Below are positions 3,921 to 60,820 of a DNA stretch of 64,000 bases, one piece after another. A program made the translations under genes and the position numbers. The stretch is from Candidatus Micrarchaeota archaeon (lineage in GTDB: Archaea > Micrarchaeota > Micrarchaeia > Anstonellales > Bilamarchaeaceae). Numbering within the stretch: the stretch's first letter is position 1; every line of letters begins with the position of its first letter. A model generated the notes under the pieces. It made no database searches. It saw only the letters and a list, made by a program, of their open reading frames with translations, and was not told where the DNA came from. The stretch spans positions 811 to 64,810 of the forward strand of contig JAGMCT010000023.1 in assembly GCA_023129075.1 (NCBI GenBank). Reading direction: 5' to 3'.

Positions 3921-4124
3921 TTATTGGAACTCTGGTTCAGGGAACTCGTCTTCAGTTAAATCAATCCCTAAATCCTGAATTTCCAAATCATCTAAGCTTA
4001 TGTCAAGAGGTTCGTTTACCTTTTTTTCCGTTACCTGTCCTTCCTCTTCAATCTCTTGTACCTGAGGACCGATACAACCAAAGAACAGCAAGGAAATCAT
4101 CAGTATGGTAATTATTGTTCTCAT
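3921..4124 (-). CDS. small secreted/lipoprotein-like acidic protein
   Basis: 67 aa; N-terminal hydrophobic signal ending FFGC, then an acidic tail; overlaps the upstream gene by 4 bp. Confidence 0.4.
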   Translation of the reverse strand: MRTIITILMISLLFFGCIGPQVQEIEEEGQVTEKKVNEPLDISLDDLEIQDLGIDLTEDEFPEPEFQ

Positions 4125-5011
4125 GCTTCCCCTCTTATCTCTTCTACTAAATCAACAAGCTTTTCCCTTGCCTCTCCAATCTTCGCTCTTGCTTCAAGTG
4201 CTTCCCCTGCATCATAGTATTCATCATCCCCTATAGATATCGCTTCATCTAAAAGGTCTTGAATCTCTTCCAGCTCGGTTTCATAACCTTCGGTTCTTTC
4301 CTGTATTCTTTCAAGGAAAAGATTCATTTTTTTATTGTTGAATTTGGCCCAGATGTGAAGATGTTTCATCCAGACATCTCTTCTTATTTCCAGTATATCC
4401 TCGTTTTCGTTGTCCACTGCATCCTGAAGGATTTCGGCATTTTCTTCTGCTTCTTCAAGAACATCCTCTATTTCTGAAACATCATAATCCCTTTCTTCCA
4501 TTGAATCTGTGGCGTTCTTTGCTACTTCCATCCAGTGTTCATGTTTTTCCAGTTCTCTTTCTGAGTTAGAAAACGCTGCGCTTCTGAAGCATACCTGAAG
4601 TTCGTCTTTCTTTTCATCAAAATCTGCCCTAATCTCAGCCATCATATCTGCTCTTTCCTGTCCCTTCAATCCGCTTCTAGCTTCTTTTCTCATGTCTCTT
4701 AAATATTCAGAGGTTTCTCTCCATACCTCTCTGAGGTCATCCATTGCCCCTCTAAAAGAGGATCGATCGTTATTCCCAACGGCGTCTGCAAGAACACCAA
4801 GTGAATCATCCAGTTGTTCCTTGTATTCATTTATCTCATCCTCGCTCGCATTCTCAACAAAATCAGGAACCGAATCAAGAAGAGAGCTCTGGAAAACCAC
4901 CCTGCACTCTGCCATATCATACCTGTGCGTCATTCCATAATCCCTGTAATCCCCAAAGAATCCTGCAAAGAGCATCCCAAGGGCCAACAAGCCTAGTAAC
5001 AATTTTTTCAT
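4121..5011 (-). CDS. secreted acidic alpha-helical protein of unknown function
   Basis: 296 aa; signal peptide MKKLLLGLLALGMLFAGFF; highly acidic E/D-rich body; strong six-frame ORF. Confidence 0.55.
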   Translation of the reverse strand: MKKLLLGLLALGMLFAGFFGDYRDYGMTHRYDMAECRVVFQSSLLDSVPDFVENASEDEINEYKEQLDDSLGVLADAVGNNDRSSFRGAMDDLREVWRETSEYLRDMRKEARSGLKGQERADMMAEIRADFDEKKDELQVCFRSAAFSNSERELEKHEHWMEVAKNATDSMEERDYDVSEIEDVLEEAEENAEILQDAVDNENEDILEIRRDVWMKHLHIWAKFNNKKMNLFLERIQERTEGYETELEEIQDLLDEAISIGDDEYYDAGEALEARAKIGEAREKLVDLVEEIRGEA

Positions 5012-6848: not shown

Positions 6849-7007
6849 ATGTCTAACGTTTATGAAAAAGTAAACAATGTATGGAAATCTACCTGTAAGA
6901 TATTATTCAGGCAGGAAATAGGAGATGGATTTCCAGGCACGGTTAAGGGTTTCATCTACTTCTTTTTGCATATACAGAGATTAGGAATAAAGGGTTTTAA
7001 TCCTTAG
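6849..7007 (+). pseudogene. N-terminal remnant of the A/B paralog family (decayed copy)
   Basis: Translation MSNVYEKVNNVWKSTCKILFRQEIGDGF matches the conserved family N-terminus (YEKVNNVWKSTCRIIFGEEIGEL) for ~25 aa, then diverges and stops after 52 codons. Confidence 0.6.
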
Positions 7008-8784
7008 TCTTTTTTGGTTTTTCTTTTTCTGAGATTACTTCTTCTGGTTCCTTTACACGTTTCTTTCTCCAGTGCTTAAGGTCCACAGTTTTTACCTTCA
7101 TGGGGATGGTATATCGCTCGCCATCAAAAAATCTGGCAACGCATTCCCTAACTTTAAGATTAGTAAAGATGTTCTTTTTCTCTTCCTCAAGCTCGGAGGG
7201 GGCGATTTTCTTCCTAAAGAACTCCTCAACCTTCATGTCCATGATAGAACTGATATAACCTGCATCCTGCTTGCTCAGGCGGAATGCAACTACATTGTAA
7301 ACATTCGTAAGAATACTATCAAGGATTTCCTTTTGTATCTGCCCTAAATACTGAAGAGAAAGACAGAGAGAAAGATTGAACTTTCTGGTTTCAGAGAGAA
7401 TGTCCTTTACAACAAGGGTTTCAACAACCGGAAACTCATCAATAATAAGAATCGTGGGCTGATTGAGTTTGTGGGTAATTGCAAAGATATACATCTGCTG
7501 AATGATGGCTCCTGCAAGGAACTTAATCATTCTTCTGCCGAAGAAATGGGGGTCAAAGGAAATTATAGTAACGTCGTTTTTCTCTATAAGATCCATAAGA
7601 CGAACAACGTTCTTGTCCTTTCCTATATAAAGCTCATATTCGCTGACAAAGTTAAGGATTGGCAGAACAGCATCGTTGAAATGATGCAGATAGATATCAT
7701 CAAACTCAACGCTGAAGAACCTTTTTACTTCGTCGTTTTCAACCATACTGGCAAATTCCATCCTTTTTGAGGAATCAGTAAGCAATAGGTTTATGTTTTC
7801 CAGGCTTAGCATATTTAGTTCTGAAAGCAGATAAACTGCATAGAAGAGGATTCGCTCAGAATACTTATTCTGTTCTCCTATGACGGAAATCATTAGCTGG
7901 ACAATGAGCTGGGTAGTCATAGGGTTCTTTTCCCTTCCTATCTCAAGCGGCTCAATATAATCATTCTTAAAGTCTACAACCTTTCCTTCAATAAGCTTGG
8001 ATAATTCATTGTGGGGGTCTATAATCACAATTTTCTGACCCTTGTGCTTGGCTGAGATTGCCTTCACAAGCATTTCAAGAAGCTTGCTCTTTCCTGTTCC
8101 TGACATGCCAACGAACAAAGAATGCTTGAATACGTCAAAGTTCTCCACTCCTATTGTAGAACCATCAATCTCAAACAGGGGTTTTTCCGAATGCATGTGC
8201 ATGGTTTTCAGGAGAGGGTGGTCCAGCATCTCCATAAAAAAGGAGGGGTTCTTCTCTAAATCAATCTCAAAGAATTTCTCTGGATTGAGAAGAAATACTG
8301 ATTTTCTCCACCCATCCTCGTTAACTGCACTCCCCCATCCAAAAAGCTTTCCAAAGATAGGAAACGTGCGTATATTCAACTGTGTGATGCGCTGTTTTAC
8401 GAGGAAATCAAAAATGTTTAAATCCTTGAAGATATACAAACCAAACGGGATTCCTCCTTTTTTTATCTCATCAGTGTGTTTGCTCTCCCCTATGGGTCTG
8501 AATGGAAATATCAATGAACCGAGCTTCTTGAGTCTATCGTAGTCTCCTTTCAGAAACACCCTTACAGTATTTGCCTTTTTAAGAAAGACCATTTCAGTAG
8601 CTCTGAAGGGGAAAACAAGGCTGAAATCAAGAAAATCAAAACCAGGAACATCCCATTTAAGGAGAGTAGTGAGGAAACGGTTCCAATCGTTTATGGATAC
8701 CTTTGGGGAATAGAGGGAAAGTTCTATGGGGTTATCTTTTTTCCAGTTAAACATTTGTATCCACTTTCTAACATTCTTTTTCAC
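6997..8784 (-). CDS. P-loop ATPase of the FtsK/HerA superfamily (HerA/VirB4-like, DUF87-type)
   Basis: 595 aa; Walker A GMSGTGKSKLL at ~aa 228 and Walker B ILIIDEFP at ~aa 445, separated by a long insertion as in HerA; N-terminal ~220-aa domain. Same strand and immediately downstream of the split A|B pair. Confidence 0.6.
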   Translation of the reverse strand: MKKNVRKWIQMFNWKKDNPIELSLYSPKVSINDWNRFLTTLLKWDVPGFDFLDFSLVFPFRATEMVFLKKANTVRVFLKGDYDRLKKLGSLIFPFRPIGESKHTDEIKKGGIPFGLYIFKDLNIFDFLVKQRITQLNIRTFPIFGKLFGWGSAVNEDGWRKSVFLLNPEKFFEIDLEKNPSFFMEMLDHPLLKTMHMHSEKPLFEIDGSTIGVENFDVFKHSLFVGMSGTGKSKLLEMLVKAISAKHKGQKIVIIDPHNELSKLIEGKVVDFKNDYIEPLEIGREKNPMTTQLIVQLMISVIGEQNKYSERILFYAVYLLSELNMLSLENINLLLTDSSKRMEFASMVENDEVKRFFSVEFDDIYLHHFNDAVLPILNFVSEYELYIGKDKNVVRLMDLIEKNDVTIISFDPHFFGRRMIKFLAGAIIQQMYIFAITHKLNQPTILIIDEFPVVETLVVKDILSETRKFNLSLCLSLQYLGQIQKEILDSILTNVYNVVAFRLSKQDAGYISSIMDMKVEEFFRKKIAPSELEEEKKNIFTNLKVRECVARFFDGERYTIPMKVKTVDLKHWRKKRVKEPEEVISEKEKPKKTKD

Positions 8785-8849
8785 TTATAATAAGGAGTAA
8801 GAATGTTTTTAAATATATGCTTATTTACATAGAAAAACATAAAAAACAC

Positions 8850-9623
8850 CTATACCGTCTGTTCACTGCTGGTATTGAATATATCCGTCTCAAAACCCCC
8901 TTTCTTTTCCAAGGACTTTATTATGCCATCAACAAGAATCTTTCGCACCCTTTGGTAAGCGTCCCTTCCTACTTCAACGTTTCCAACGGCATATTTGAGA
9001 TTTTTTGCGTTGGAACAAAATAAGGCATCATGTACATTTTCACAGTTATGGCAGAAGTAAGCATTGGTGCTGTCTTTAACAGAATCGCATTCAAATGCAA
9101 CAGTTGCACGTACGCAATTATAGCAGTTGATGCAGAACTTTGAATAGAAAACCCGGAATGAACCGAATATGAATTCTGAGTATTTGGTGTATGAACTATA
9201 TGCTATATTCTTTGAGTTGAATGCATCGTTTGCTCTGTATGTGTTTACAGTATCCTCAAGCCCCATGGTTTCAGTATTATTCTTGTTCTTTCCAACCTGC
9301 ACATCTACATTGAAATAAGCAATTTCAGGGATTTCCTGCAGAAGTTCGTTGAGGGTCATGTTTTCCTTCAGTTCCTTGATCTTTATCTCACTTGCCTTTG
9401 TTTCTCCTTCGTAAAAGGAAACGATTTTCTCTTTTGGTATGAGCTCAAGGAATCTGTACTGCTTTATTAAACGGATATTTTCTCCGGTGAGTTTTGTTTT
9501 TATGTTTTCCCCCTCTCCAATATGTTGTCTCAGCCATCCCTCATATTCATCTAAAGGAGTGAGTTCTTTTCCGAATAGAAGTTTTGTTGTAGTTGAGAGG
9601 GCATTTTCTACTTCTTGATTCAT
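8850..9623 (-). CDS. paralog family protein, single B-type module
   Basis: 257 aa. N-terminal motif ALSTTTKLLFGKELTPLDEYEGWL; C-terminal Cys-rich block CINCYNCVRATVAFECDS...YFCHNCENVHDALFCSNAKNLKYAVGN. Overlaps the upstream A-module gene by 4 bp. Confidence 0.7.
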   Translation of the reverse strand: MNQEVENALSTTTKLLFGKELTPLDEYEGWLRQHIGEGENIKTKLTGENIRLIKQYRFLELIPKEKIVSFYEGETKASEIKIKELKENMTLNELLQEIPEIAYFNVDVQVGKNKNNTETMGLEDTVNTYRANDAFNSKNIAYSSYTKYSEFIFGSFRVFYSKFCINCYNCVRATVAFECDSVKDSTNAYFCHNCENVHDALFCSNAKNLKYAVGNVEVGRDAYQRVRKILVDGIIKSLEKKGGFETDIFNTSSEQTV

Positions 9624-10375
9624 GGTTGAACCCCCTTGGCTATTTTAAATATTGTTGGAAATGACTTTTTCTTCTGCATTATCTCTGCCACTTCTTCCAA
9701 AAGCTTTTCCTTTAAGGAAAGGTATTTCTCTCTTTGGAGCTCTATGTTCCCTATCATATGTTGTTTATTCTTCTGATTAAATGAAAATAGGCACTCCCTG
9801 CAGTTACCCATATGCCAGCTGAAGTACAAGTCCGATGAGGAATTTGAATAACCTGTCTGGAAAAGCCTTGTTGACCTATAATTATGGTACCCCCTTATTA
9901 TTGAATTTGTAAAGGCCGAATAGGTTGAACCAAATATGAATTTTGAACTTAGTAAGATGTTAGAATATGCTGCATACTGAGAATCATAAATAGCATTTGA
10001 TTCAAATACAAAACCAGCATCCATAGACCCATCCGATGCATTAACTTCTATGCACCTCCCAAGATTTTTGTCTCCGCAGTAGAAAAAAGTATCCTTTATG
10101 CAATCAAGCAGGGAATCAATATCTTTTATGGCATTTATATCGAGGGTCGGCTTCTTGAGTCTTTCCAATTCCGCATAAGAAATAAATCTTCCTTCTTTAG
10201 GATATTCAGAATAGTACAAGTAGATGTCTTTTCCCGAGATTGAGGAGGTTCTTTTTGTAATGGGTTCTGCTGTGGACGTTAGATATGTTTTGAACTCCTC
10301 CAGACTTCCGAGCTCTTGTTTGAATAAAGTTCTGCACGTTGAGCGAAATGCAGAATCCAATTTCTGGTTGAACAT
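9620..10375 (-). CDS. paralog family protein, single A-type module
   Basis: 251 aa with the A-module motifs FRSTCRTLFKQELGSLEEFKTYL, SGKDIY, IKDIDSLLD, YAAYSN, SSSDLYFSWHMGNCRECLFSFNQKNKQHMIGNIEL and KLLEEV. Confidence 0.7.
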   Translation of the reverse strand: MFNQKLDSAFRSTCRTLFKQELGSLEEFKTYLTSTAEPITKRTSSISGKDIYLYYSEYPKEGRFISYAELERLKKPTLDINAIKDIDSLLDCIKDTFFYCGDKNLGRCIEVNASDGSMDAGFVFESNAIYDSQYAAYSNILLSSKFIFGSTYSAFTNSIIRGYHNYRSTRLFQTGYSNSSSDLYFSWHMGNCRECLFSFNQKNKQHMIGNIELQREKYLSLKEKLLEEVAEIMQKKKSFPTIFKIAKGVQP

Positions 10376-10499
10376 ATATTAAAAGTGTGCTTAATCAGTA
10401 TTTATATTAAAGTAGTTCAGTAACTGGACTAAAAACTAGGGATTGTTTAGAGTATCATGCTGAACAGAGATATTTAAACCTAGATGGGAAAAAAGAACC

Positions 10500-12080
10500 A
10501 TGCAGAATTCTATTGCATACAATAAGATAAACGAAGCCTGGAAGGATTCCTGCAGGGTTATCTTTGGAAAAGAATTGGGGGATTTGAAGGAATACAAGGA
10601 ATGGCTTTCCATGGACATGGAATCCATGAATACAAAAAAATCAATGGTTTCAGGTAAAGATGTTTGCTGCGCAGTTCCCCATTATTGCGAGGGTGCCAAA
10701 TTTATCTCTCTGGATGAGGTGGACTTTAACAAAAGGTTTGAGCCGTTGAATATAAATGAGATAAAGGACATAGATTCTATTGTTGAAGCATTACAAGAGA
10801 GGTTTTATTATACTGGAAATGTTATACTGGCAAATTCAAGGTTTGTTGAGGAAAGCTCCAACATCTCCAATTCATTCTACATGTTTCATTCAAACTATGC
10901 ATCTGACTCAAAATATGCTGCATATTCATCATATCTTAGGTATTCAAAGTGCATGTTTGGTGTGAATGAAGATGCTCTGTCTTCCTTCGTAATAAGGGGG
11001 TTTGACCTTCACAGGGTGAGTAGAGGTTTTGAGGTGTGGAGAACATTTAGCTCAAATGATTGTTATTATACATATGGAGTGGAGGACTGCAACAATGTCT
11101 TATTTTCATTCAATACAAAGAGCAAGAAATACGTTATTGGAAATCTTGAATTAAGCAGAGAAAAATTCGCATCTCTCAAAAAGAAGTTGTTGGGGGAAAT
11201 AATTGATGGGTTGGAAGGAAAAAAAACGGCTCCTTCCCTAATGGATTTTATTCCAAAAGACCTGGAAAAAACCAGAGCTCCGAAAGTAGAAACCAGAATA
11301 ATGAAAAAAGATGAGAACAAGGAATTGATAGAAGAGGCGTTCAGAAGAACAACAAAGATTGTTTTTGGAAAAGAACTCACAGAGATTGATAGATATGGAG
11401 AATGGCTGGCAGAGAACATGCCCGGAGTTACAACTGTTGAATCTGCTGTAAGCGAAAGCCCTGTTTACCTAGGCTTATATGTTCCTTATACTCACTTACC
11501 CAAAGAGAGGCTGGTCAAAGAAGCAGAAAGCAAAAAACTTGGGGAGATAGTGAAGTTAGAAGAAAGTGAAATAGGTTCAATAGAAGAAATAAAGAAATCC
11601 CTGCAGAAGATTGCGTTCTTTACCCCTGAAACCAGAATGGGAGATAATGCTAACCTGATTTACGCAGCAGTAGTTGCTAGATCAGTAAACTGCTATAAAG
11701 GGGCTCTTTTTGCTTACAATGAAAATTGTGCCTTCTCGTTCTGGTCCAGGAACTCTAAATATATGTTTGGGTCAGCTTTAGCATTTTCCTCTCATTCGTG
11801 CATTAGGTGTTACAATTCTCTGAATCTGTCAAGGTGTTTTGAGACGGATGGTTCAAGCAATTCCTCTGATTTGTATTTTTGTCATAATTGTGAGAACGTG
11901 CAGAATTCTATGTTTACTTTTAATACAAAGAACTTGAAGAATGCTATCGGGAATGCTCCTCTTTCCTTGGAGGATTATAAGAAGGTTAAAGGAAACTTAT
12001 TGGAGCAGATTATAGGTGAAATAGAAGAGAAGGGATCATTAAAATGGAGTATATATAATATTGGGTGTGAAAAAGATTAG
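10500..12080 (+). CDS. paralog family protein, fused A-B two-module form
   Basis: 526 aa. The N half matches the A module (AWKDSCRVIFGKELGDLKEYKEWL...CNNVLFSFNTKSKKYVIGNLEL) and the C half the B module (CIRCYNSLNLSRCFETDGSSNSSDLYFCHNCENVQNSMFTFNTKNLKNAIGNA...KWSIYNIGC). Confidence 0.75.
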   Translation: MQNSIAYNKINEAWKDSCRVIFGKELGDLKEYKEWLSMDMESMNTKKSMVSGKDVCCAVPHYCEGAKFISLDEVDFNKRFEPLNINEIKDIDSIVEALQERFYYTGNVILANSRFVEESSNISNSFYMFHSNYASDSKYAAYSSYLRYSKCMFGVNEDALSSFVIRGFDLHRVSRGFEVWRTFSSNDCYYTYGVEDCNNVLFSFNTKSKKYVIGNLELSREKFASLKKKLLGEIIDGLEGKKTAPSLMDFIPKDLEKTRAPKVETRIMKKDENKELIEEAFRRTTKIVFGKELTEIDRYGEWLAENMPGVTTVESAVSESPVYLGLYVPYTHLPKERLVKEAESKKLGEIVKLEESEIGSIEEIKKSLQKIAFFTPETRMGDNANLIYAAVVARSVNCYKGALFAYNENCAFSFWSRNSKYMFGSALAFSSHSCIRCYNSLNLSRCFETDGSSNSSDLYFCHNCENVQNSMFTFNTKNLKNAIGNAPLSLEDYKKVKGNLLEQIIGEIEEKGSLKWSIYNIGCEKD

Positions 12081-12124: not shown

Positions 12125-13696
12125 ATGGAAGAATCGCCTCTTTATGAAAAAGTGAATAACGTATGGAAATCTACTTGTAGAATAATATTTGGAGAAGAGA
12201 TAGGAGAGCTAAAGGAATATGAGAAATGGTTGTCAGAATACAGAGAACCTTTCCTAAAGAAAAAATCAGCAATCTCGGGAAAGGATGTTTATTGCTCAAA
12301 TACTCAATATTGTGGAGATGCAAAATTCATTTCCTTAAATGAGATAGATTTTAATAAAAAGTTTGAGCCTCTGAGTATAAATGAGGTAAAGGATATTGAT
12401 AGTATTGTTGAAGGGTTGCAGGAGAGATTTCATTACTGTGGGAATATAAAACTAGGGAATTCTCAATTTGTGGAGAGGAGTAGCAATGTGTTCAATTCAA
12501 ACTATGTCTCATCGTCAACTACAATATTTGATTCCAACTACATATCAAACTCAAGCAGGATAAGAGTTTCAAAAACCCTTTTTGGATGCTATTTCGTAGG
12601 AGAAAGTAATTCAAACATAAGAATTTATTCTGGGTGGAGACTAAGTCGTTCATTTGAAAGCTATGAAGCATGCGAAGGAAACGATGTTATTTATTCAGCA
12701 AACGTTGTTGGGTGTTCCGAGTGTATGTTTTCAATAGGACTAAGAGGAAAAAAGTACGTAATAGGAAACAGAGAACTAGAAAAAGATACATATGCGAAAA
12801 TAAAAGAGAAGCTCATAGGAGAAATAAAAGATGAATTAGAGAAAGAAAAAAGAATATTCTCATTCATAGACATAATAAAAACAGCTCAAGCAGACACAAT
12901 AAGTTCTAGCGAAGAAAAAAAAGGGATTGTTGATAAAGAAACAATAGAAAAAGCATATAGAAAAACACTTTCAGTCGTGCTGCAATGTAAGACTAGTAAG
13001 AATATTGACCACTATAAAAATTTTCTAATGAAAAATGTTCCGGAATACATAGAGAAAAGAAAAAGTACTATAAGCAATAGAGGGTTTTTCACAGTTGTAG
13101 AATCACTACATAAAAAACTACCTAAGGAAGTATTTGTAGAATTCAATGAGAGTCAGGAAATGGCTAAGAACAGAAAACTAAACAATGATGATATAAAAAA
13201 TCTTGAGAGTATAATAACCAACATCAAAAAAATAGCATTTATTAATTTTGACTACAGAGACAGTAGGTCAGAAAATATGATTGAAACTCCTTCCTATCAA
13301 AATTCAAAAAACGCTTATCATGTTGCATATGCATATGGAGTAAAAAACTCTGCTTTTTCTCAATGGCCACGAAACAGTGAATACATGTTCGGTACATCAG
13401 AAACACTCCACTCATTATTTTGTATTAATTGTTACTTCTCAAGAGATTTGGCAAGAGCATTTGAAGTTGATTCTTCAAGGAAATGTTCTGATGTTTACTA
13501 TTCTCATAACTGTGAAAATGTACATGATTCTATGTTCTGTTTTAATAAGAAAAACATAAGAAATGGAATAGGAAATGCTGAGTATGGGAAGGATGAATAT
13601 CTTAGAATAAAGAGTTCATTGTTGGAACAGATTGTAAATGAGCTTGAACAGAAGGAGAATTTAAAATGGAACATCTATAATATTGGTTGTGGCTAA
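12125..13696 (+). CDS. paralog family protein, fused A-B two-module form
   Basis: 523 aa with the same A-B architecture. The N-terminal ~110 aa are near-identical to the next gene; C-terminal motifs include CINCYFSRDLARAFEVDSSRKCSDVYYSHNCENVHDSMFCFNKKNIRNGIGNA and KWNIYNIGCG. Confidence 0.75.
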   Translation: MEESPLYEKVNNVWKSTCRIIFGEEIGELKEYEKWLSEYREPFLKKKSAISGKDVYCSNTQYCGDAKFISLNEIDFNKKFEPLSINEVKDIDSIVEGLQERFHYCGNIKLGNSQFVERSSNVFNSNYVSSSTTIFDSNYISNSSRIRVSKTLFGCYFVGESNSNIRIYSGWRLSRSFESYEACEGNDVIYSANVVGCSECMFSIGLRGKKYVIGNRELEKDTYAKIKEKLIGEIKDELEKEKRIFSFIDIIKTAQADTISSSEEKKGIVDKETIEKAYRKTLSVVLQCKTSKNIDHYKNFLMKNVPEYIEKRKSTISNRGFFTVVESLHKKLPKEVFVEFNESQEMAKNRKLNNDDIKNLESIITNIKKIAFINFDYRDSRSENMIETPSYQNSKNAYHVAYAYGVKNSAFSQWPRNSEYMFGTSETLHSLFCINCYFSRDLARAFEVDSSRKCSDVYYSHNCENVHDSMFCFNKKNIRNGIGNAEYGKDEYLRIKSSLLEQIVNELEQKENLKWNIYNIGCG

Positions 13697-15256
13697 ATGA
13701 CGACTAAAGTATATGAAAAGCTAAATAATGTATGGAAATCTACATGTAGAATTATATTCGGGGATGAGATAGGAGAACTAAAGGAATATGAGAAATGGCT
13801 ATCTGAATACAGAGAACCTTTCCTAAAGAAAAAATCAGCAATCTCGGGAAAGGATGTTTATTGTTCTACGCCTCATTATTGCGAGGGTGCCAAATTTGTT
13901 TCTTTGGATGAAGTGGACTTTAACAAAAAGTTTGAGCCTCTGAGTATAAATGAGGTAAAGGATATTGATAGTATTGTTGAGGGGTTGCAGGAGAGATTTT
14001 ACTACACAGGAAATGTAACACTACAAAATTCCAAGTTTGTTGAGGGAAGTTCAGATATTATTAATTCTCATTTTGTTCTGAATTCAAACTTTATTGCTGA
14101 TTCGCAATATATTGCTTATACGTCGGAAATCAGGTTTTCTAAGTATTTATTCGGCGTTAGTTGCTGTGCTTATTTCAACAATGTAATTAGAGGGACTGGT
14201 TTTAATACCTCAAATTCTTTGGAGAGCTGGTTAACGTGGGAGTCAAACGGTTGTTATTATACAATCAATGTGAGGGGTTGTACAGATATAATGTTTTCAT
14301 TTGGTTTAACCGGAAAGAGAAACATGATTGGGAATTTACAACTGTCAAAAGAAGAATATTATAAGACAAAAGAAAAATTATTAGAACAGCTAAGAGACGA
14401 ATTAATAAAAAATAAAAGATTGCCAGGAATTTTTGAACTTGCAATAGGTGAACCTCCTAAAGTTGAGGGAATAACAAGAGGAAATGTTGAAGAAACAGAT
14501 CTTGCACCAATAGAAAATGCATTCAAAACAACAACAAAAATGATCCTAGGAAAAGAACTAGAAAACATAGATAATTACAAAGATTGGTTATTGAGAAATA
14601 CTATAGGTGTCCAAGAGATCCCTTCAGCGATAACCGGAGAACCCACCTATCTTGAAGATCTTATACCTTACACTCTTGTTCCTAAGGATAGGGTAGTGAA
14701 TGATAAAGAATCGTTTAAAGCATCTGAGATACTTAAGATAAAAGAAGTAACAGAAGATTTGAGGGAATTAAAGGAAAGATTCGGACGAATAATTTTATAT
14801 CCTGTACAAACTGAAGGACAGGAGAATAAAAATGTTACAAAAACCGCGGCAACAAGAAATTGTGTGGATTGTTATTATGGTTCCATTTATATAGAAAACG
14901 AAAAGTGCGCTTATTCATTCTGGCCTAGGAATTCAAAATACATATTTGGTTCATCAATGGCCTTCTCATCAAATTCATGTGTTAATTGTTATTCATCTTC
15001 AAACATCTCTAGATGCTTTGAGGTGGATGGTTGTAGTAATTCTGCAGGCTTGTACTTCTCCCATAATTGTGAAAATGTACATGATTCAATGTTTACTTTT
15101 AATGCAAAGAATCTAAGGTACTCAATAGGAAACGCAACTTATTCTCCAGACCAATATAACAAAATAAAATATTCCATATTAGAACAGATAACGAATGAAT
15201 TAGAAGAGAGGAAGGACTTGAAATGGAATATCTATAATATTGGTTGTGGAAAATAA
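13697..15256 (+). CDS. paralog family protein, fused A-B two-module form (mosaic copy)
   Basis: 519 aa with A-B architecture. DNA stretches of 50+ nt are identical to the 12125 copy, and others nearly identical to the 10500 copy (e.g. cattattgcgagggtgccaaatt...gtggactttaacaaaa), indicating gene conversion. Confidence 0.75.
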   Translation: MTTKVYEKLNNVWKSTCRIIFGDEIGELKEYEKWLSEYREPFLKKKSAISGKDVYCSTPHYCEGAKFVSLDEVDFNKKFEPLSINEVKDIDSIVEGLQERFYYTGNVTLQNSKFVEGSSDIINSHFVLNSNFIADSQYIAYTSEIRFSKYLFGVSCCAYFNNVIRGTGFNTSNSLESWLTWESNGCYYTINVRGCTDIMFSFGLTGKRNMIGNLQLSKEEYYKTKEKLLEQLRDELIKNKRLPGIFELAIGEPPKVEGITRGNVEETDLAPIENAFKTTTKMILGKELENIDNYKDWLLRNTIGVQEIPSAITGEPTYLEDLIPYTLVPKDRVVNDKESFKASEILKIKEVTEDLRELKERFGRIILYPVQTEGQENKNVTKTAATRNCVDCYYGSIYIENEKCAYSFWPRNSKYIFGSSMAFSSNSCVNCYSSSNISRCFEVDGCSNSAGLYFSHNCENVHDSMFTFNAKNLRYSIGNATYSPDQYNKIKYSILEQITNELEERKDLKWNIYNIGCGK

Positions 15257-15259: not shown

Positions 15260-16870
15260 TCACTTGCATCCAATATTGTAAATATCGTATTTTAAGGTTT
15301 TGTTCTTTTCCAATTCTGAGGAGATTTGCTCTAGTAAAGAGGACTTTATTTTTCTATATTCATCAGGAGAAAGTTTGGAATTGCCGATTGCATGCTTCAG
15401 ATTTTTTACATTGAAGCAGAACATTCCATCCTGAACTGCTTCGCAATTGTGAGAAAAGTAGATGTCTGAACAGTCCCTAGAGCTGTCAACCTCAAAACAT
15501 CTGGAAAGTTTGCTTGAATTATATACATTTATGCAAAATAAAGAGTCATGAACCGTATCAACACCAAACATATTCTCAGATCTTACCGGCCAAAAGGAAT
15601 ACCCGCAGTTTTTTGCACGTAGTGGCGCTCCACACCTATAACTGTTGCTTGAATAGCCCACCATCACACATTCTGGAATATTTGAGTTCTGCAATTTTAG
15701 TTCGGTAGAAACATATCCTATATCAGCGATTATATCATGTGCTTTCTCCAGCGAAAGATTATTTACGTCATTTTTATCCGCTTTAAGGTATTTGCCTGCC
15801 AATTGGCCTTCTTCTATACGAATTATCCTGTTATGCGGGAATTTGTCAAATACTGAATAATGTACAAGACCTGATTCCTTTCCTGAAATTACTGAGGGCA
15901 GTATCTCAATTGGTTTTACATGCCTGTACAGAAAATCTGAGTAATCCTCCATAGATCCGATCGGTCTGCCAAACACTACTTTGCAGGTATCCTCAAACTG
16001 GTCCTGTACAACTGAAATGTCAGTTTCAGGGTCATCATATTTAGTTTCTGCAGTAATCTTTGAAAATACATTCTTTAATTCATCAGATTTTACCCTGGAA
16101 TTGTACAGATAATCAAGCAATCCCAGGCATTTCCTATCCTTAACCAGTTTAGCTCTTATTTCTTCAAGCAAAGATTCCTTTATTTTCATGTATTGGGATT
16201 TTTCAAGTTCTAAATTGCCTATTGTGTATTTCTTATTCTTCAGATTAAATGAAAAAATACAATCCTGACAGCCGTTAATATTCATTACATAATAACAATC
16301 CGAACAGGTATGGCTTTCATAGAATTCAAAACAGCGACTGGACCATGTAGATTCCATCGCCATTATATTAAATTTGGATTCTCCTATTCCATTTCCCCCG
16401 AAAATTCTTTCGGAGGAACGCGCCATCTTGACATGGGCCATATAGATTGAATCAAGTATGTTGAGCGAATCCAGAATGAAACTTGAGTTATGTATATCCG
16501 AGCTGTCAGAAACGAATCTTGAGTTTCCAAGAATAATATTGCCCGCATACACAAATCTTTCCTGTAGTGATTCAACTAGAGAATCAATATCTTTTATTTC
16601 ATTTATGTTCAAAGGTTCAAATTTCCTGCTATAATCTATTTCGCCTAAATCCATGAATCTTGCTGAGGGGCAATAATCGCCCTGTGCCGGAAATACTGTT
16701 TTATTTGAAATATGTGATTTTTCAGACCTCATGGCACCCGGATATTCAGATAAGTAAGCTGAAAACTCATCTAATTCACCCACCTCACCTCTTAGGACAA
16801 TCCTGCAAGTGGATTTCCATTCCTTATTAAGAGAATTGTAAACTTCGGGGTTCATGGTTTTCCTCTGCAA
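15260..16870 (-). CDS. paralog family protein, fused A-B two-module form
   Basis: 536 aa with N motifs EWKSTCRIVLRGEVGELDEF and IKDIDSLVESLQERF, C motifs CINVYNSSKLSRCFEVDSSRDCSDIYFSHNCEAVQDGMFCFNVKNLKHAIGNS and KYDIYNIGCK. Co-oriented with the upstream methyltransferase-like gene. Confidence 0.75.
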   Translation of the reverse strand: MQRKTMNPEVYNSLNKEWKSTCRIVLRGEVGELDEFSAYLSEYPGAMRSEKSHISNKTVFPAQGDYCPSARFMDLGEIDYSRKFEPLNINEIKDIDSLVESLQERFVYAGNIILGNSRFVSDSSDIHNSSFILDSLNILDSIYMAHVKMARSSERIFGGNGIGESKFNIMAMESTWSSRCFEFYESHTCSDCYYVMNINGCQDCIFSFNLKNKKYTIGNLELEKSQYMKIKESLLEEIRAKLVKDRKCLGLLDYLYNSRVKSDELKNVFSKITAETKYDDPETDISVVQDQFEDTCKVVFGRPIGSMEDYSDFLYRHVKPIEILPSVISGKESGLVHYSVFDKFPHNRIIRIEEGQLAGKYLKADKNDVNNLSLEKAHDIIADIGYVSTELKLQNSNIPECVMVGYSSNSYRCGAPLRAKNCGYSFWPVRSENMFGVDTVHDSLFCINVYNSSKLSRCFEVDSSRDCSDIYFSHNCEAVQDGMFCFNVKNLKHAIGNSKLSPDEYRKIKSSLLEQISSELEKNKTLKYDIYNIGCK

Positions 16871-16936: not shown

Positions 16937-17683
16937 TTAACCATTATTCTTTGCTACAAGAATTAATCTTTTGTTTTTTTGATGTTTCTTATCTGGTGAG
17001 TCAAACGTTTCTTTTTCTATTATTTTATATCCTATTTCTCTAATAGTTTTAAGTATTTCAGGTATGCTTTTAGGTCTTCTATCCGAAAAGAAAGCTGGCA
17101 GACCGTAATCAACAACATTATTAATGAAAATTAAACCATCTTTCTTGATAAATTCTTTAAGTACCATCAAAAATAGCTTGTAATCGATGTAATTAAGAAC
17201 ATGTGAAACAACAACAGAATCAAAAGAAATTTTCTTCAAATGCAATTTTTTGAAGGCTTTTTGTGTTTCCAATTTAAGTTTCAGGAAAGAATTTCCTTCA
17301 ATTTGATTTAAATCACAAAATATGGGGTAAACAGAATCTTTCTTATATTTGTTATTATGGTACTTCAAAACATGGTAATCATTTTCCCAGTAAAAAATTT
17401 GGGAATTAGGGAATTCTTCCGGAGTGACCAAAGGGTTAAAGAAAGGCCCAACTTCAAGAATAATATTCCCCATGTTTTTCCTATATTTTTTTAGAAATGG
17501 TGAAAGCATCTGGCTGCCAGTTATCATTCTTTTTCTTGCTTCAATATCAAAATCCCCTCCATGGGGATTCTCTTCTAACGGCCAACCAGGCCAGTTGTAA
17601 ATTTTGAAATCATCCATGGATAGAACTAAACAAATCTGATATATAAAAGTTTCGGGATATTGAAGAGAGTCAAGTGAAACCAA
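16937..17683 (-). CDS. class I SAM-methyltransferase-like protein with a degenerate motif I
   Basis: 248 aa. ILEVGPFFNP aligns with MTase motif I (hhDhGxGxG) but lacks the glycines; FDSVVVSHVLNYI matches the post-II/III acidic motif of class I MTases. Confidence 0.4.
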   Translation of the reverse strand: MVSLDSLQYPETFIYQICLVLSMDDFKIYNWPGWPLEENPHGGDFDIEARKRMITGSQMLSPFLKKYRKNMGNIILEVGPFFNPLVTPEEFPNSQIFYWENDYHVLKYHNNKYKKDSVYPIFCDLNQIEGNSFLKLKLETQKAFKKLHLKKISFDSVVVSHVLNYIDYKLFLMVLKEFIKKDGLIFINNVVDYGLPAFFSDRRPKSIPEILKTIREIGYKIIEKETFDSPDKKHQKNKRLILVAKNNG

Positions 17684-17726: not shown

Positions 17727-19598
17727 ATGAAAGAATTAATCATTCATGCAGATAAGGTTTCTTATGAAGTAACAAAGAAAACAGGGGTGGCCGAAGAAAT
17801 TCCAAAGGAGATGGAAAAGGGAGAAATGGAGGAAGTGCTCTGGCTGAGGATAGCAGTGGAAAAGGACGATGAGGGAAAAATAGAGAATTTAGTGAGGAAG
17901 GCAGTGGAGGATGTAAAAAAAGTGGCAGAACAAGTGAAAGTGAAGAATGTGATGATTTATCCTTATGCACATCTTTTGTTTGGGTCAAAACCTTCTGACC
18001 CGAAAACAGCCCTGAATCTTCTGAAGGGGATTGAAGAGGAGCTTAAGAAAGAAGGATTTGAAGTAATGAGGGCTCCTTTTGGGTGGTACAAAAAATTTAC
18101 TGTGGTTGCAAAGGGGCATCCTCTGAGTGAATTGTCAAGGGTTTTTCATGGAGAAGAAAGTGAAGAAAGGGATGAGGTTTCTGCATCAGTGAAAGCTGAG
18201 GAAGAGCTCAAGAGTAGATTTTATATATTAACCCCTGAGGGGGAGCTTGTGGAAGCTGAGAAATATGATTATAAAGGGCGAGAAGGGCTCAGGAAACTAA
18301 TGAGCTATGAGACTAAGAAAATGAGGGCGTATGAAAAAGAGCCGCCGCACATAAAAATCATGCAGGAACAGGAGCTTGTAGATTATGAGCCGGGAAGCGA
18401 TGCGGGAAATTTCAGGTTTTATCCAAAGGGAAGGCTGATAAAGAAATTATTGGAGGAATCAATAACAGACTTTTGTATAGATTTGGGGGCAATGGAGGTG
18501 GAGACCCCTTTGATGTATGATTTTGAACATCCTTCTCTGAAGAAGTATTTGAATAGGTTTCCTGCAAGACAGTATGTGGTGCTGAGCGAGGATAAGAGAT
18601 TCTTTCTGAGGTTTGCGGCATGTTTTGGGCAGTTTTTAATGAATCATGATATGGTAATGAGCTACAGGCACCTGCCCCTAAAAATGTATGAATTGGCAAG
18701 GTACTCTTTCAGAAGGGAGCAGACTGGGGAGCTCGCAGGGCTTAAGAGGCTTAGGGCGTTTACCATGCCGGATATGCATACTCTTGCAAGAGATATGGAG
18801 ATGGCAAAAAAAGAGTTTGAAAAACAGCTGGAAGCAGGAATAGAATGGCTGGGCGGAACCGGACTCTATGAAGGAATAGAAACCGCATTCAGGGTGCAGA
18901 GTGATTTTTACGAAGAGAATAAGGAATGGTATAGGGAAATGGTAAAAAAATTGGGAAAACCTGTGCTTGTTGAGTTGTTTGATGAGAGGTATGCTTATTT
19001 TATTACGAAATTTGAGTTTAATTTTATAGATACGATGGACAAAGCGAGTGCATTAACTACGGTGCAGATAGATGTAGAGAATGCAGAAACCTATGACATT
19101 AATTTTGTAGAGGAGAACGGAGAGAAGAAAAGGCCGTTGATATTGCATGCATCCATAAGCGGGGGCATAGAAAGGGTAATTTATGCACTTTTGGAAAACG
19201 AGGCAGGGAAGATGAAGAAAGGGAAAAAAGCGATGCTTCCTGTGTGGCTCTCCCCCACCCAAATAAGGGTAATTCCCATCTCAAGAAATCAGCTGGAGTA
19301 TGCAAAGAAGGTTGCTGAGGGGTTAAAGGAATTTAGGGTTGATGTGGATGATAGGGATGAGAGCTTGGGAAAAAGGATAAGGGCGGCTGAGAAAGAATGG
19401 ATTCCCTATGTGATTGTTGTTGGGGAGAAAGAAGAGAAAGAGAAAAAAATTGCTGTTACCATAAGAGAAACACAGAATAAAAAGGAGATGAATGTAGAAG
19501 AGATTGAAAAGGAAATAGCTGAAAAAACAAGAGATTTTCCAAAAACAAAACTTTCACTTCCTCAATTAATCTCAAAAAGACCAACATTCAGAGGTTGA
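17727..19598 (+). CDS. thrS: threonyl-tRNA synthetase (archaeal type with N-terminal editing domain)
   Basis: 623 aa; class II aaRS core motifs (FRREQTGE, RLRAFTMPDMH, HASISGGIERVIYALLE), a C-terminal anticodon-binding domain and an archaeal-type N-terminal domain. Confidence 0.85.
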   Translation: MKELIIHADKVSYEVTKKTGVAEEIPKEMEKGEMEEVLWLRIAVEKDDEGKIENLVRKAVEDVKKVAEQVKVKNVMIYPYAHLLFGSKPSDPKTALNLLKGIEEELKKEGFEVMRAPFGWYKKFTVVAKGHPLSELSRVFHGEESEERDEVSASVKAEEELKSRFYILTPEGELVEAEKYDYKGREGLRKLMSYETKKMRAYEKEPPHIKIMQEQELVDYEPGSDAGNFRFYPKGRLIKKLLEESITDFCIDLGAMEVETPLMYDFEHPSLKKYLNRFPARQYVVLSEDKRFFLRFAACFGQFLMNHDMVMSYRHLPLKMYELARYSFRREQTGELAGLKRLRAFTMPDMHTLARDMEMAKKEFEKQLEAGIEWLGGTGLYEGIETAFRVQSDFYEENKEWYREMVKKLGKPVLVELFDERYAYFITKFEFNFIDTMDKASALTTVQIDVENAETYDINFVEENGEKKRPLILHASISGGIERVIYALLENEAGKMKKGKKAMLPVWLSPTQIRVIPISRNQLEYAKKVAEGLKEFRVDVDDRDESLGKRIRAAEKEWIPYVIVVGEKEEKEKKIAVTIRETQNKKEMNVEEIEKEIAEKTRDFPKTKLSLPQLISKRPTFRG

Positions 19599-19632: not shown

Positions 19633-21165
19633 ATGGTTATGGAAAGAAAAGAAAGGGTGCTTACCAGACAGGTGCTCAAAAAGCAACCCAATATCTTCAA
19701 GAAAATAATCAAAAACAAAGGCGACCGACAGCATGGATTAGAGCTTAACAATATATTTCTTAATATCCTTGATGAAAACAAGATAACACAAGCAATGTTG
19801 AGAATACAAGCGCTTGCATTAGTACATCACATTGAAGAAAAAAACCTTGGCAGGATTATAACTAATTTTCAAAAAAGCCTTAATGATTCAGTAAAAAAGA
19901 CGTATTCAAAAGACATCCTTCAGCTTTGGAAGAATTATCAAGTCCTTAGAAAAATAGATGAAAATGAAGGGCCATTGGGTATATATAAAGAATTGCTGGA
20001 GAGTGTTGGGCCTATGGTTCTTATGACAAGAATAATGGATTTAAGCTCAAAAAAAATTATAAATCCGTACATTCCAAAACCTAAAAAACAATCTATTTTA
20101 GTTGAGCTTGCTAAGAGGATGCTTTACATTTACTCTCCTGTTGCAGAAATAATGCAGCTCCATATGCGTTCCGGGATAATTAAACATAAAGGAATTGAGG
20201 TATTATACTCGGAACAACTTGATGATGTAAGAGAGATTATTTCTGCAAAGGAATTTGAAATAAAAAAAACAATGAAAACATTCAAACAAAAAATCAATCT
20301 GACAATAGAAAAATATAATGAAGATAATGGAACAAAATTCATAATACCAAAAGACAGGGAATGCAGGATAAAAACGCCTGCAAGCATAGTTCTTAAGATG
20401 ATTGACAAAAAAATAGGGGATGTAGATAGCATCCTTGACCTTATTGCAATAACAATTGTTGAGAACAGCCAGATAGATGAAGAAGAGAAAATAAGGCACA
20501 TTTACAATCTTGAAAAAGAGATTAGTGTTGTTTTGATGGGAAATAAAACATGGCTCCTTGAAGAAGATGACCACATAAAAAATCCAAAGAATACAGGGTA
20601 TCAGGCTTTACACCAAAATTATAAAACATTGAATGGAATTGGTTTTGAGATACAGTACAAAACACTTAAGATGCATGAAAAGTCAGAGAGGGGAGACCCT
20701 TCTCAATTTCATGGAATTCACAAAAGCAACGGAAGAATAACAAAAAGGATTAGTAAAAATCTCAATGAATTCCTTGGCACTGTTGCAATGGCCAAAAATG
20801 AGGAGGAATTACTTGAAAGTTCATTAAAGGCAAGACATGCAAAAAAAACATACTCTTTAACTATCTATGAAAATGGAAAGAAAAGAATTGTCAAATTAAA
20901 ATTTTCATTTGACCCTCTTGTTGCAGATTTAGTAGCAGATTCTGTTGGATTCGAAAGAAAAGTTAATGTATATGGAAAAGAAACAGGTCTGCAATTGCCT
21001 TTTTTGAATAATGTAAAATCAGGTTCAGAAATAGAAATAATGGTAACAGACAGAAAATCTAATTATAGGAAAGAAACAATGAAATTAATATTAGCTAAAA
21101 CAAAAGATGAGAATACAGTTAAAAATATTAAATCTTATCTTAAATCTACTTCCAAAAAAGTATAG
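19633..21165 (+). CDS. RelA/SpoT-homolog (RSH) synthetase-domain protein with C-terminal TGS-like domain
   Basis: The RxKxxxSIxxK motif (RECRIKTPASIVLKM), the D-x-I-A motif (DLIAITIV) and the G-Y-Q-S-L-H...E-I-Q-I-R-T-like block (NTGYQALHQNYKTLNGIGFEIQYKTLKMHEKSERG...FHGIHK) match the (p)ppGpp synthetase domain. C-terminal VNVYGKETGLQLPFLNNVKSGSEIEIM is TGS-like. No intact HD motif is visible (ALALVHHIEE). Confidence 0.55.
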   Translation: MVMERKERVLTRQVLKKQPNIFKKIIKNKGDRQHGLELNNIFLNILDENKITQAMLRIQALALVHHIEEKNLGRIITNFQKSLNDSVKKTYSKDILQLWKNYQVLRKIDENEGPLGIYKELLESVGPMVLMTRIMDLSSKKIINPYIPKPKKQSILVELAKRMLYIYSPVAEIMQLHMRSGIIKHKGIEVLYSEQLDDVREIISAKEFEIKKTMKTFKQKINLTIEKYNEDNGTKFIIPKDRECRIKTPASIVLKMIDKKIGDVDSILDLIAITIVENSQIDEEEKIRHIYNLEKEISVVLMGNKTWLLEEDDHIKNPKNTGYQALHQNYKTLNGIGFEIQYKTLKMHEKSERGDPSQFHGIHKSNGRITKRISKNLNEFLGTVAMAKNEEELLESSLKARHAKKTYSLTIYENGKKRIVKLKFSFDPLVADLVADSVGFERKVNVYGKETGLQLPFLNNVKSGSEIEIMVTDRKSNYRKETMKLILAKTKDENTVKNIKSYLKSTSKKV

Positions 21166-28553: not shown

Positions 28554-28626
28554 TGAGCCCGGGAGGATTTGAACCCCCGATTCCCACCGTGTGAGGGTGG
28601 TGTCTTAACCGCTCGACTACGGGCTC
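28554..28626 (-). tRNA. tRNA-Val (anticodon CAC)
   Basis: Reverse complement GAGCCCGTAGTCGAGCGGTTAAGACACCACCCTCACACGGTGGGAATCGGGGGTTCAAATCCTCCCGGGCTC folds as a cloverleaf with anticodon loop CTCACAC. Confidence 0.85.
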
Positions 28627-28651
28627 TTTTTTATTTTTCTAAAAGTTTATA

Positions 28652-28724
28652 TAGCCCTGACCGGATTCGAACCGGTGTCAACGGATCCAGAGTCCATTAT
28701 CCTTGACCACTAGACTACAGGGCT
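28652..28724 (-). tRNA. tRNA-Gln (anticodon CTG)
   Basis: Reverse complement AGCCCTGTAGTCTAGTGGTCAAGGATAATGGACTCTGGATCCGTTGACACCGGTTCGAATCCGGTCAGGGCT with anticodon loop CTCTGGA. Its 5' end overlaps the stop codon of the HAD gene. Confidence 0.85.
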
Positions 28725-29281
28725 TTTTGGATGAAGTTCTTGTTTAATTCACCCGGTTTTATTTTAAATGTTTTTATGTTTGCATTCTTTCCTGCAAGCT
28801 CATCCCAGAATCCATCTCCCAAGAATATAGTGCTTTTTCTGGTTTCTCCTGCTTTTTGCATCAGGAGGTAAAGCATTTCAGGGTTTGGTTTGGGTCTTTG
28901 GACTGAATCCCTTCCTGCTATGAAATCAATTTTAATATTTTCCTTTTCAACGAATTCCCTTGCTGTTTGTTCGTTGTTGTTTGTTGCTATGGCTGTTTTA
29001 TGTCCTTTTTCTCTAAGGTATTCAAGCATCTCTTTTATTCCATTGTAAAGCTTGTAATTGCCTGAGTCCAGAGCGTTTTTTTCATGTCTTCCGAATATTC
29101 GGTTTATTTCTAATCTTGCTTCTTTGTCTTTCTCGGAGATTTCATTTGTAATTGTAACGAGGTGGGCCTTTGGGTCGCTGACTAAATGGCTGAATTTTTT
29201 CATTACCTCATTTTGCACTGCACCATACCAGTCTACTCCTAATTCAACCAGAGTGTGGTCTAAATCGAATATTAAAAGCAT
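28715..29281 (-). CDS. HAD-superfamily hydrolase (phosphatase)
   Basis: Start reassigned to MLLIFDLDHTLV (HAD motif I DxDxT); the 40-aa upstream extension in the ORF track overlaps the tRNA-Cys gene. The stop TAG lies inside the tRNA-Gln acceptor stem. Confidence 0.65.
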   Translation of the reverse strand: MLLIFDLDHTLVELGVDWYGAVQNEVMKKFSHLVSDPKAHLVTITNEISEKDKEARLEINRIFGRHEKNALDSGNYKLYNGIKEMLEYLREKGHKTAIATNNNEQTAREFVEKENIKIDFIAGRDSVQRPKPNPEMLYLLMQKAGETRKSTIFLGDGFWDELAGKNANIKTFKIKPGELNKNFIQKAL

Positions 29282-29282
29282 A

Positions 29283-29370
29283 AGCCAGGAAAGGGAATCG
29301 AACCCCTCTATGCTGGTTTCTTTCTCACTGGAGCTTGCAGCCAACCACATAGCCAATCTGTCATCCTGGC
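29283..29370 (-). tRNA. tRNA-Cys (anticodon GCA) with putative ~17-nt intron at 37/38
   Basis: Minus-strand GCCAGGATGACAGATTGGCTATGTGGTTGGCTGCAA[GCTCCAGTGAGAAAGAA]ACCAGCATAGAGGGGTTCGATTCCCTTTCCTGGCT. Acceptor GCCAGGA/TCCTGGC; T-arm AGGGG-TTCGATT-CCCTT; anticodon stem GTTGG/CCAGC; loop CTGCAA… The intron boundaries were not verified as BHB. Confidence 0.55.
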
Positions 29371-29512
29371 GAAGTTTCTCTGAGCCGGGAGCTATCGCCA
29401 AAGGCGATTCAATCCTGGCGAAGCCAAGAGCTATAACGCGGAGCGTTATTCAATCCTGGCGAAGTTTCTCTGAGCCGGGAGCTATCACCGAGGGTGATTC
29501 AATCCTGGCATT
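29371..29512 (-). repeat. three tandem tRNA-5'-end-like repeats (41-49 nt) upstream of tRNA-Cys
   Basis: Each unit is GCCAGGATTGAAT-[hairpin]-AGCTCCCGGCTCAGAGAAACTTC. The hairpins (ATCACC…GGTGAT, ATAACGC…GCGTTAT, ATCGCC…GGCGAT) differ by compensatory changes. Confidence 0.7.
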
Positions 29513-29540
29513 CAGTAACAATTAACATAGTGCATAACTT

Positions 29541-29558
29541 TTTAAATTGTTATATGAG
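29541..29558 (+). promoter_or_regulatory. putative archaeal TATA/BRE promoter of the 5S rRNA gene
   Basis: tttaaattgttatatgag lies ~20-30 nt upstream of the 5S 5' end. Confidence 0.3.
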
Positions 29559-29568
29559 TTAAAGTATG

Positions 29569-29688
29569 CTTGTCAGCGGTCATAGGAGAGGGGAAACACC
29601 CGTTCCCTTCCCGAACACGGAAGTTAAGCCTTCTCACGGTTTTGCAAGTACTGCCCTAAGGGTGGGAACACGGACTGCTGCTGACATC
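29569..29688 (+). rRNA. 5S ribosomal RNA
   Basis: Contains the universal 5S block CCCGAACACGGAAGTTAAGCC; the terminal helix TGTCAGC…GCTGACA closes the molecule at ~120 nt; A/T-rich TATA-like sequence ~25 nt upstream. Confidence 0.85.
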
Positions 29689-29733
29689 TTATACTCATTC
29701 TTTTAATTCTTTCTCTTAGATTAAAGTCTGCAT

Positions 29734-60787: not shown

Positions 60788-60820
60788 CTGCTTTTTCTAT
60801 AGACTTTTTATTCTAAAAGA

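Follow-up and report, generated by a model that had tools for sequence, protein, structure and literature searches.

An overlapping gene pair in a Micrarchaeota archaeon corresponds to the two modules of its fused neighbouring paralogs

This study concerns two adjoining genes, A and B, in a stretch of 64,000 nucleotides (nt) from a Candidatus Micrarchaeota archaeon (GenBank assembly GCA_023129075.1, contig JAGMCT010000023.1, positions 811 to 64,810), which as a whole is called the window here. It is suggested, with a probability that we put at about 0.8, that A and B are a conserved two-cistron unit, the products of which together equal one fused A-B protein of the type encoded by four paralogs, F1 to F4, in the same locus. 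The pair, the signals at its junction and the fused paralogs are as follows (lengths in amino acids, aa).

Gene A: 9620..10375, minus strand; 251 aa; MCK4319871.1, KAW38_04855; stand-alone A module with IKDIDS motif
Gene B: 8850..9623, minus strand; 257 aa; MCK4319870.1, KAW38_04850; stand-alone B module with HNCENV motif and a Cys-rich solenoid part
ATGA stop/start overlap: 9620..9623, minus strand; B start ATG at 9623-9621, A stop TGA at 9622-9620
Shine-Dalgarno-like AAGGGGG: 9631..9637, minus strand; within the 3' end of gene A, 7 nt upstream of the B ATG
Fused paralog F1: 10500..12080, plus strand; 526 aa; A module 3-251 and B module 274-525
Fused paralog F2: 12125..13696, plus strand; 523 aa
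Fused paralog F3: 13697..15256, plus strand; 519 aa; structure modelled
Fused paralog F4: 15260..16870, minus strand; 536 aa

Comparison with the fused paralogs clearly separates the two genes. In BLASTP searches within the window, A aligned with residues ~4-250 of F1-F4 at 35-38% identity (E 1e-42 to 1e-53) and with their C-terminal halves at E 1e-18 to 1e-21 at best, and B aligned with residues ~272-530 at 32-38% identity (E 1e-39 to 1e-47) and with the N-terminal halves only at E 1e-12 to 1e-23. As sequence matches go, these values are far beyond chance. A and B are also related to each other (26% identity, E 1e-23), and each fused protein therefore represents an internal tandem duplication of a ~250-residue module. 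Hidden Markov models (HMMs) of the two modules, modA and modB, scored 319 and 156 bits on A, and 139 and 301 bits on B; since their training sets contain A and B of the window themselves, this typing is supportive and not independent. The invariant motif of the A modules, P-L-x-I-N-x-I-K-D-I-D-S, is represented by IKDIDS in the A open reading frame (ORF), and that of the B modules, Y-F-x-H-N-C-E-N...M-F-C-F-N, by HNCENV in the B ORF. The difference between the motifs appears consistent with specialisation after duplication and with an obligate need for both modules. An initial annotation of this DNA had described one ORF with A-type motifs only and one with B-type motifs only, together in the order of the ~520-aa proteins, and BLASTP, HMM scores and motifs agree with that description. 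Alignment of the pair against the fused copies, which it had recommended, places each ORF on a separate half in the same order, so that the components match distinct and non-overlapping parts of the composite, both for the four composites of the window and in the HMM typing of 51 loci.

The two-gene form is found well beyond this contig. A word-indexed search with A returned only proteins of A length, 12 besides A itself, with 250-264 aa and 32-66% identity, and a search with B returned 45 homologs, mostly of B length. On the contigs with A homologs (loci L001-L004) the gene after A is a B module, the junction being a 4-nt gap in L001 and a 4-nt overlap in L003. L004 has two consecutive A|B pairs adjoining a DUF87 ATPase gene and a threonyl-tRNA synthetase gene, as in the window. 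One genome per GTDB species was scanned, giving 49 further loci, all from Micrarchaeota, and every ORF of at least 100 aa in all loci was typed with the A and B HMMs. After removal of redundancy, the 51 loci yielded 57 A|B pairs, and no fewer than 47 fused genes were counted. Module A is followed by module B, adjacent and on the same strand, in all 57 pairs, and no orphan A or B module was found in these loci away from contig ends. Both states are present in 14 loci, the window included. The initial annotation had claimed that split and fused states exist within one locus, and had proposed that related genomes be searched for both; the co-occurrence is true here and in 13 other loci.

The geometry of the junctions is that of overlapping gene pairs, with the A stop near or overlapping the B start. 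The B start lies within -17 to +13 nt of the A stop in 56 of the 57 pairs, most often at -8 (20 pairs), +1 (11), -1 (8) or -4 (5). It is an ATG in 55 pairs, and a Shine-Dalgarno-like tetramer is present 4-15 nt upstream of it in 39 (68%), compared with 12.5% for random positions inside A genes (p 2e-22). Orthologous pairs keep the split, with junction types drifting from -8 to +9 nt. The commonest junction, an 8-nt overlap of the form ATGnnTGA/TAA, probably reflects shared ancestry in one large split clade. An unusual arrangement was seen in L018 (9415-12584), where A with the first 73 positions of B is followed by an ORF in which the remainder of B continues in frame into a complete A, and then by a separate B. 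It looks like a fused gene that has a frameshift and runs on into the following pair across a B-A junction; a pseudogene, an error of assembly and a longer A-B-A-B chain are possible readings. One relative, P0074, is 730 aa long.

Separate ORFs could in principle result from a one-nucleotide indel, whether a sequencing or assembly error or a fresh mutation, that broke a fused gene of ~510 aa. The same locus was found in three other assemblies of this population, namely NCBI GCA_030628865.1 (L054), ENA ERZ23498683 and Logan SRR13892594. Identity to the window is 100% for the contigs from ENA and Logan, that from NCBI is identical over 19.6 kb with the exception of one base that lies elsewhere, and the ATGA junction at 9620-9623 is the same in the window and in all three (L054, L055 and L056). 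The orthologs at 32-66% identity, in at least eight other genomes of the same clade, are split as well, at other junctions, and this carries more weight than the agreement of the assemblies. Both ORFs of the window are full-length and score as complete modules, and there is no out-of-frame tail. The modules of fused proteins are separated by 18-39 residues (median 21), those of split pairs by a median of 5 (A tail 5, B head 0; p 4e-16), and the window pair likewise has 5 residues in A tail and B head together. With no remnant of a linker at the junction, a one-base repair would not give back a normal fused protein. The B frame is moreover closed by a TAA 8 codons upstream of the B ATG. The pair therefore lacks the features by which a frameshifted pseudogene or an assembly artefact would be recognised, and we regard the indel as extremely improbable, even though an event of this kind is present in the locus, in F1.

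The F1 variant provides a useful contrast. At 11219-11226, at the end of its module A, F1 has a run of eight A residues (A8; codons GGA AAA AAA ACG), and in L054 this run has nine (A9), which is the sole difference between the window and L054 over the region compared. In L054, F1 is called as a 271-aa gene, consisting of an A module and 28 out-of-frame residues, and a 259-aa gene that starts from Met268, just before module B; the two genes (8309-9124 and 7543-8322) overlap by 14 nt. This is the appearance of a fresh frameshift, and the A|B pair does not share it. The A8/A9 change is either a real variant that converts fused to split in one step or an assembly error. With an in-frame Met ahead of module B, such a one-step change is mechanically easy.

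It is also conceivable that ribosomes undergo a programmed -1 frameshift towards the end of A, or that transcription slips there, so that a fused A-B protein is made alongside or instead of the separate products. B is in the -1 frame relative to A, A-rich tracts occur at the end of the A module in the family, and the run in F1 (11219-11226) holds a canonical slippery A AAA AAA. However, no in-phase X XXY YYZ slippery heptamer is present in the 8 codons that separate the TAA of the B frame from the A stop, and the frame relation is not conserved, being +1 or +2, and once 0, among the 57 pairs, with junction sequences that are not conserved either. The upstream TAA, the absence of a slippery heptamer and the varying frame offsets together argue against programmed frameshifting. 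B also has an ATG of its own and a Shine-Dalgarno-like motif at the frequencies given above, and runs of A are not clearly enriched in the linker region relative to the rest of the genes. Recoding is thus a very improbable source of the pair's product. Poly-A tracts at the A/linker boundary of fused genes were also considered as a slippage switch, and rejected, their distribution resembling that in the rest of the genes. The proposal of the initial annotation that the split is real and involves no frameshift is upheld by the identical junction, the split orthologs, the missing linker remnant, the upstream TAA and the missing heptamer.

The signals around the pair are those of a unit in which the second gene may be translated from within the end of the first. 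At the junction the minus strand reads GTT CAA CCA TGA, with the B ATG beginning one base ahead of the A TGA; the coordinates 9620-10375 and 8850-9623 and the 4-bp ATGA overlap given by the initial annotation are exact. Three further features are relevant to the transcript.

TATA-box-like TTTAATATA: 10403..10411, minus strand; read 28 nt upstream of the A start
Oligo-T tracts (GTGTTTTTTATGTTTTTCT): 8831..8849, minus strand; read directly past the B stop
HerA/DUF87 (FtsK/VirB4/CedD-like) P-loop ATPase gene: 6997..8784, minus strand; 65 nt downstream of B on the same strand

The TATA-like element sits in a divergent intergenic region of 124 nt and is a candidate promoter, which may give a leaderless or short-leader A-B transcript. 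The oligo-T tracts are a candidate archaeal terminator between A-B and the ATPase gene, and their position directly after the B stop suggests that A-B is a bicistronic unit of its own. Coupling of overlapping gene pairs by termination-reinitiation has been measured in Haloferax volcanii and Escherichia coli (Huber et al. 2023, PMC10666635); in archaea, short overlaps couple translation experimentally and are enriched among the subunits of heteromers (PMC10666635). Like those pairs, A and B are same-strand neighbours with a -4 ATGA overlap, the junctions of the family cluster at -8, -4, -1 and +1 nt, and the products are plausibly heteromer subunits. Unlike them, coupling is deduced here from sequence alone. 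The family also differs from prokaryotes generally, where -4 and -1 dominate, in that its commonest overlap is -8 (ATGnnTGA, 20 of 57). As most pairs have a Shine-Dalgarno-like motif, independent initiation of B is possible too. The initial annotation was right in reading a 4-nt overlap and not a frameshift; the translational coupling that it derived from the overlap is something we infer, from the ATGA, the AAGGGGG 7 nt away and the precedent of PMC10666635.

We propose that tandem duplication of a ~250-residue module founded the family and that the two copies then specialised, A keeping the IKDIDS-type motif and B the HNCEN-type motif, so that a functional unit would always require both an A and a B. 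This unit would be a single chain with a ~21-residue linker in some lineages of paralogs. In others, the window pair included, it would consist of two polypeptides, most likely an A:B heterodimer that mimics the single-chain pseudo-dimer. A and B would be co-transcribed, and B would be translated from its own ATG with the help of a Shine-Dalgarno-like site that lies within the last part of A. Translation of B is most likely coupled to that of A through termination-reinitiation at the ATGA overlap, and such coupling would give 1:1 stoichiometry and co-translational assembly.

The two genes could instead be paralogs that happen to be neighbours and whose products act on their own, for instance as homo-oligomers, the likeness to the fused order being incidental. 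That A and B are homologous would fit this, but the invariant order of the 57 pairs and the lack of orphans would not, nor would the covalent joining of the same two module types in at least 499 proteins. The different invariant motifs suggest complementary specialisation of the modules, and the pair is tightly co-inherited: the A and B distance matrices of split pairs correlate with r 0.73 (permutation maximum 0.28), no less tightly than those for the halves of fused proteins (0.52). Independent action of A and B is therefore unlikely. Several points nevertheless weigh against a two-cistron unit that makes one A:B protein, or limit what can be said of it. The A:B physical interaction is inferred rather than directly evidenced, and the coupling and the structure of the transcript are read from the sequence only. 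Concatenated A and B of the window, modelled by single-sequence AlphaFold2 (AF2) without an alignment, gave a predicted local distance difference test score (pLDDT) of 33 and a predicted template modelling score (pTM) of 0.20. The assemblies that agree on the junction probably share one read set, which excludes assembler error and leaves systematic read error, though conservation of the split in orthologs makes the latter irrelevant. The trees discussed below are distance-based neighbour-joining (NJ) trees of divergent sequences. Adjacency of the ATPase gene is limited to 15 of the 51 loci, and the probable terminator-like T-run between B and this gene speaks against their co-transcription here.

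Analysis of the two module types was informative for the history of the split and fused states. NJ trees of ~95 A modules and ~96 B modules require a minimum of 6 (A) and 4 (B) changes between split and fused, so that the two states are evolutionary alternatives with transitions in the phylogeny. In both trees A and B of the window fall in the same all-split clade, with L001, L005, L006, L008, L010, L012, L017 and L045. The nearest neighbour had the same state in 87 of 90 cases and, together with the correlation of A and B distances, this indicates that the pair is inherited as a unit and that its state is stable. The direction of change is less clear. In reciprocal rooting the root was split in 19 of 30 bootstrap replicates when A was rooted by B and in 12 of 30 when B was rooted by A, and fused in 5 and 7 respectively, with the rest ambiguous. 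There is therefore a weak lean towards a split ancestor, in which tandem duplication was followed by repeated fusions. The initial annotation spoke of gene fission; both states are indeed found, whereas fission is not established for this pair and, given the slight lean of the rooting, may be the wrong word.

It is possible, although we do not favour it, that the pair did arise by fission and that the fused form is the ancestral state of the family. The midpoint-rooted B tree has a fused root, and the A8/A9 variant of L054 illustrates how easily a fused gene with an in-frame Met before B could be converted to split in one step. A Met is found just before the B module in 38% of fused genes, a mild enrichment over the 24% expected (14-residue window), and B-only initiation would be possible from it after a frameshift. 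The same Met could equally be the remnant of a former start codon, however, and against fission stand also the reciprocal rooting, the absence of a linker remnant in split pairs, and the consideration that tandem gene duplication naturally yields two genes first. About a quarter of the fused proteins have a Met 3-4 residues ahead of the I-E-x-A-F that opens module B (as in DMGPIERAF and SMKPIDDAF), exactly where split B proteins start; such proteins were seen in L009, L011, L016, L018, L024, L025, L031, L041 and L051. This Met could be a fossil start codon or an internal initiation site.

The tandem paralogs F2 and F3 show a further peculiarity. Their 5' regions (12143-12479 and 13712-14047) share 85% DNA identity over 338 nt, and the proteins are 80-82% identical over the first 120 residues and only 15-40% in the middle. 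This mosaic could be due to gene conversion between tandem paralogs or to strong constraint on the N-terminal domain. The F2 stop directly abuts the F3 start (13696/13697).

The family to which these proteins belong is large and appears to be lineage-restricted. A search with F3 found at least 499 relatives, and the 120 among the matches listed are almost all ~520-540 aa long. A single-module profile search gave 2,480 cluster representatives at E <= 1e-3, of which 341 (clusters at 50% identity) reached E <= 1e-30; the best 150 of the 2,480 matches are almost all fused, and the ~2,100 weaker ones might include relatives outside Micrarchaeota. All named sources among the matches listed are Micrarchaeota, under this name or a synonym (Micrarchaeia, Anstonellaceae, Bilamarchaeaceae, "ainarchaeum"). 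Neither A and B nor the fused paralogs had a family match in Pfam, NCBIfam, PADLOC or PHROGs, no weak match recurred when 46 members were scanned at E <= 1, and literature searches found no description of the family in Micrarchaeota. A, B and F3 are 100% identical to GenBank MCK4319871.1, MCK4319870.1 and MCK4319874.1 (KAW38_04855, KAW38_04850 and KAW38_04870), where they are "hypothetical proteins" and A and B are already separate genes.

The AF2 model of fused F3 (pLDDT 82.7) has a beta-solenoid-like core. The module is predicted to have helices at its N-terminus and one long helix at its C-terminus, together with a small sheet and a narrow beta-solenoid-like core, and the pTM of 0.84 over 519 residues would imply a defined packing of A against B. 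No relative in the PDB was found with sequence profiles from either the fused or the single-module alignment, and there was no significant structural neighbour for the family. The beta-solenoids used as comparators were the Tenebrio antifreeze protein (1ezg), the UspA1 head (3pr7), curli CsgA (8c50/8enq) and the left-handed beta-helix (LbH) acyltransferases; no significant sequence-profile or structure match to hexapeptide LbH, pentapeptide, bactofilin or curlin families was obtained. The sequences show no evident signal peptide or membrane segment. Our best guess is that the proteins are cytoplasmic beta-solenoid scaffolds or ligand-binding proteins which, in many genomes, work with an adjacent HerA/FtsK-type ATPase.

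The ATPase encoded downstream of B matches PF01935 with 36.5 bits (cut-off 23.2, E 7e-9) and is accordingly a member of the DUF87/HerA group. Its matches to CedD, TraD and VirB4, and to the PADLOC mad8 and HerA models, are weak, and no threshold for a specific subfamily was reached. The N-terminal ~200 aa are unannotated. Homologs with 48-54% identity adjoin the family clusters in the 15 loci mentioned, in varying orientation, and this adjacency suggests a functional link with the family. Other recurrent neighbours are transcription regulators, of Lrp-like (13 loci), TrmB (9 loci) and HTH_10-like (7 loci) type. A more far-reaching idea is that the HerA/FtsK/VirB4-like ATPase drives a machine specific to Micrarchaeota, to which the A|B and A-B proteins would belong as building blocks, substrates or partners. 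The proteins would then be a new class of beta-solenoid pseudo-dimers without structural relatives, expanded to up to ~12 tandem copies in a locus. In these ectosymbiotic DPANN archaea, such a machine could act in the interaction with other cells or a host, or in the translocation of macromolecules, and switching between fused and split states, in some copies by homopolymer indels such as the A8/A9 of F1, could tune assembly or give variation. We consider this speculative and improbable as it stands.

Elsewhere in the window, a 510-aa protein (19633-21165, plus strand) with a RelA/SpoT nucleotidyltransferase domain (PF04607, E 3e-14) is alarmone-synthetase-like, in a DPANN archaeon; its gene lies directly downstream of that for threonyl-tRNA synthetase (17727-19598). 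The cluster region is flanked by ORFs at 16937-17683 (minus strand, 248 aa) and 4121-5011 (minus strand, 296 aa), which match nothing in Pfam, NCBIfam, PADLOC or PHROGs and lack a homolog in the 50 related loci. Five tRNA genes (28554-29818; 60716-60788) specify Val-CAC, Gln-CTG, Leu-CAA, Leu-CAG and Pro-TGG, four of them being clustered at 28.5-29.8 kb.

Proteins that occur in composite and split forms are known as Rosetta-stone fusion/fission families. As in those families, two component genes align here to separate halves of a composite, and both states are found among related genomes. The present case differs in that the components are paralogs of each other, derived from an internal duplication, that split and fused forms coexist as paralogs in one tandem cluster, and that the family is without annotation. 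Among DPANN archaea, split protein genes are known from Nanoarchaeum equitans, where the halves are mostly unlinked in the genome and come from well-known enzymes. There too one functional protein is encoded as two polypeptides, whereas the halves considered here are adjacent, overlapping and collinear and have no assigned function. A survey of archaea found fusion/fission families to be widespread except in DPANN, and does not mention Micrarchaeota (PMC11237513).

With its two-gene form conserved across dozens of related genomes, the pair is an ordinary case of gene fusion or fission. The existence of a tandem-duplicated protein both as a single chain and as a translationally coupled two-gene heteromer is a textbook phenomenon, and what is new is a well-documented instance in an undescribed, lineage-restricted family. 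For annotators it means that KAW38_04850 and KAW38_04855, like dozens of comparable pairs of ~250 aa, are intact partners and not broken genes. The pair is also a natural Rosetta-stone argument for an interaction between the A and B modules. The finding as stated is modest, and the family itself, with its frequent ATPase association, is a more interesting lead than the split. Being sizeable and unannotated (341 clusters at E <= 1e-30), this family is a reasonable structural and functional target for the biology of DPANN archaea.

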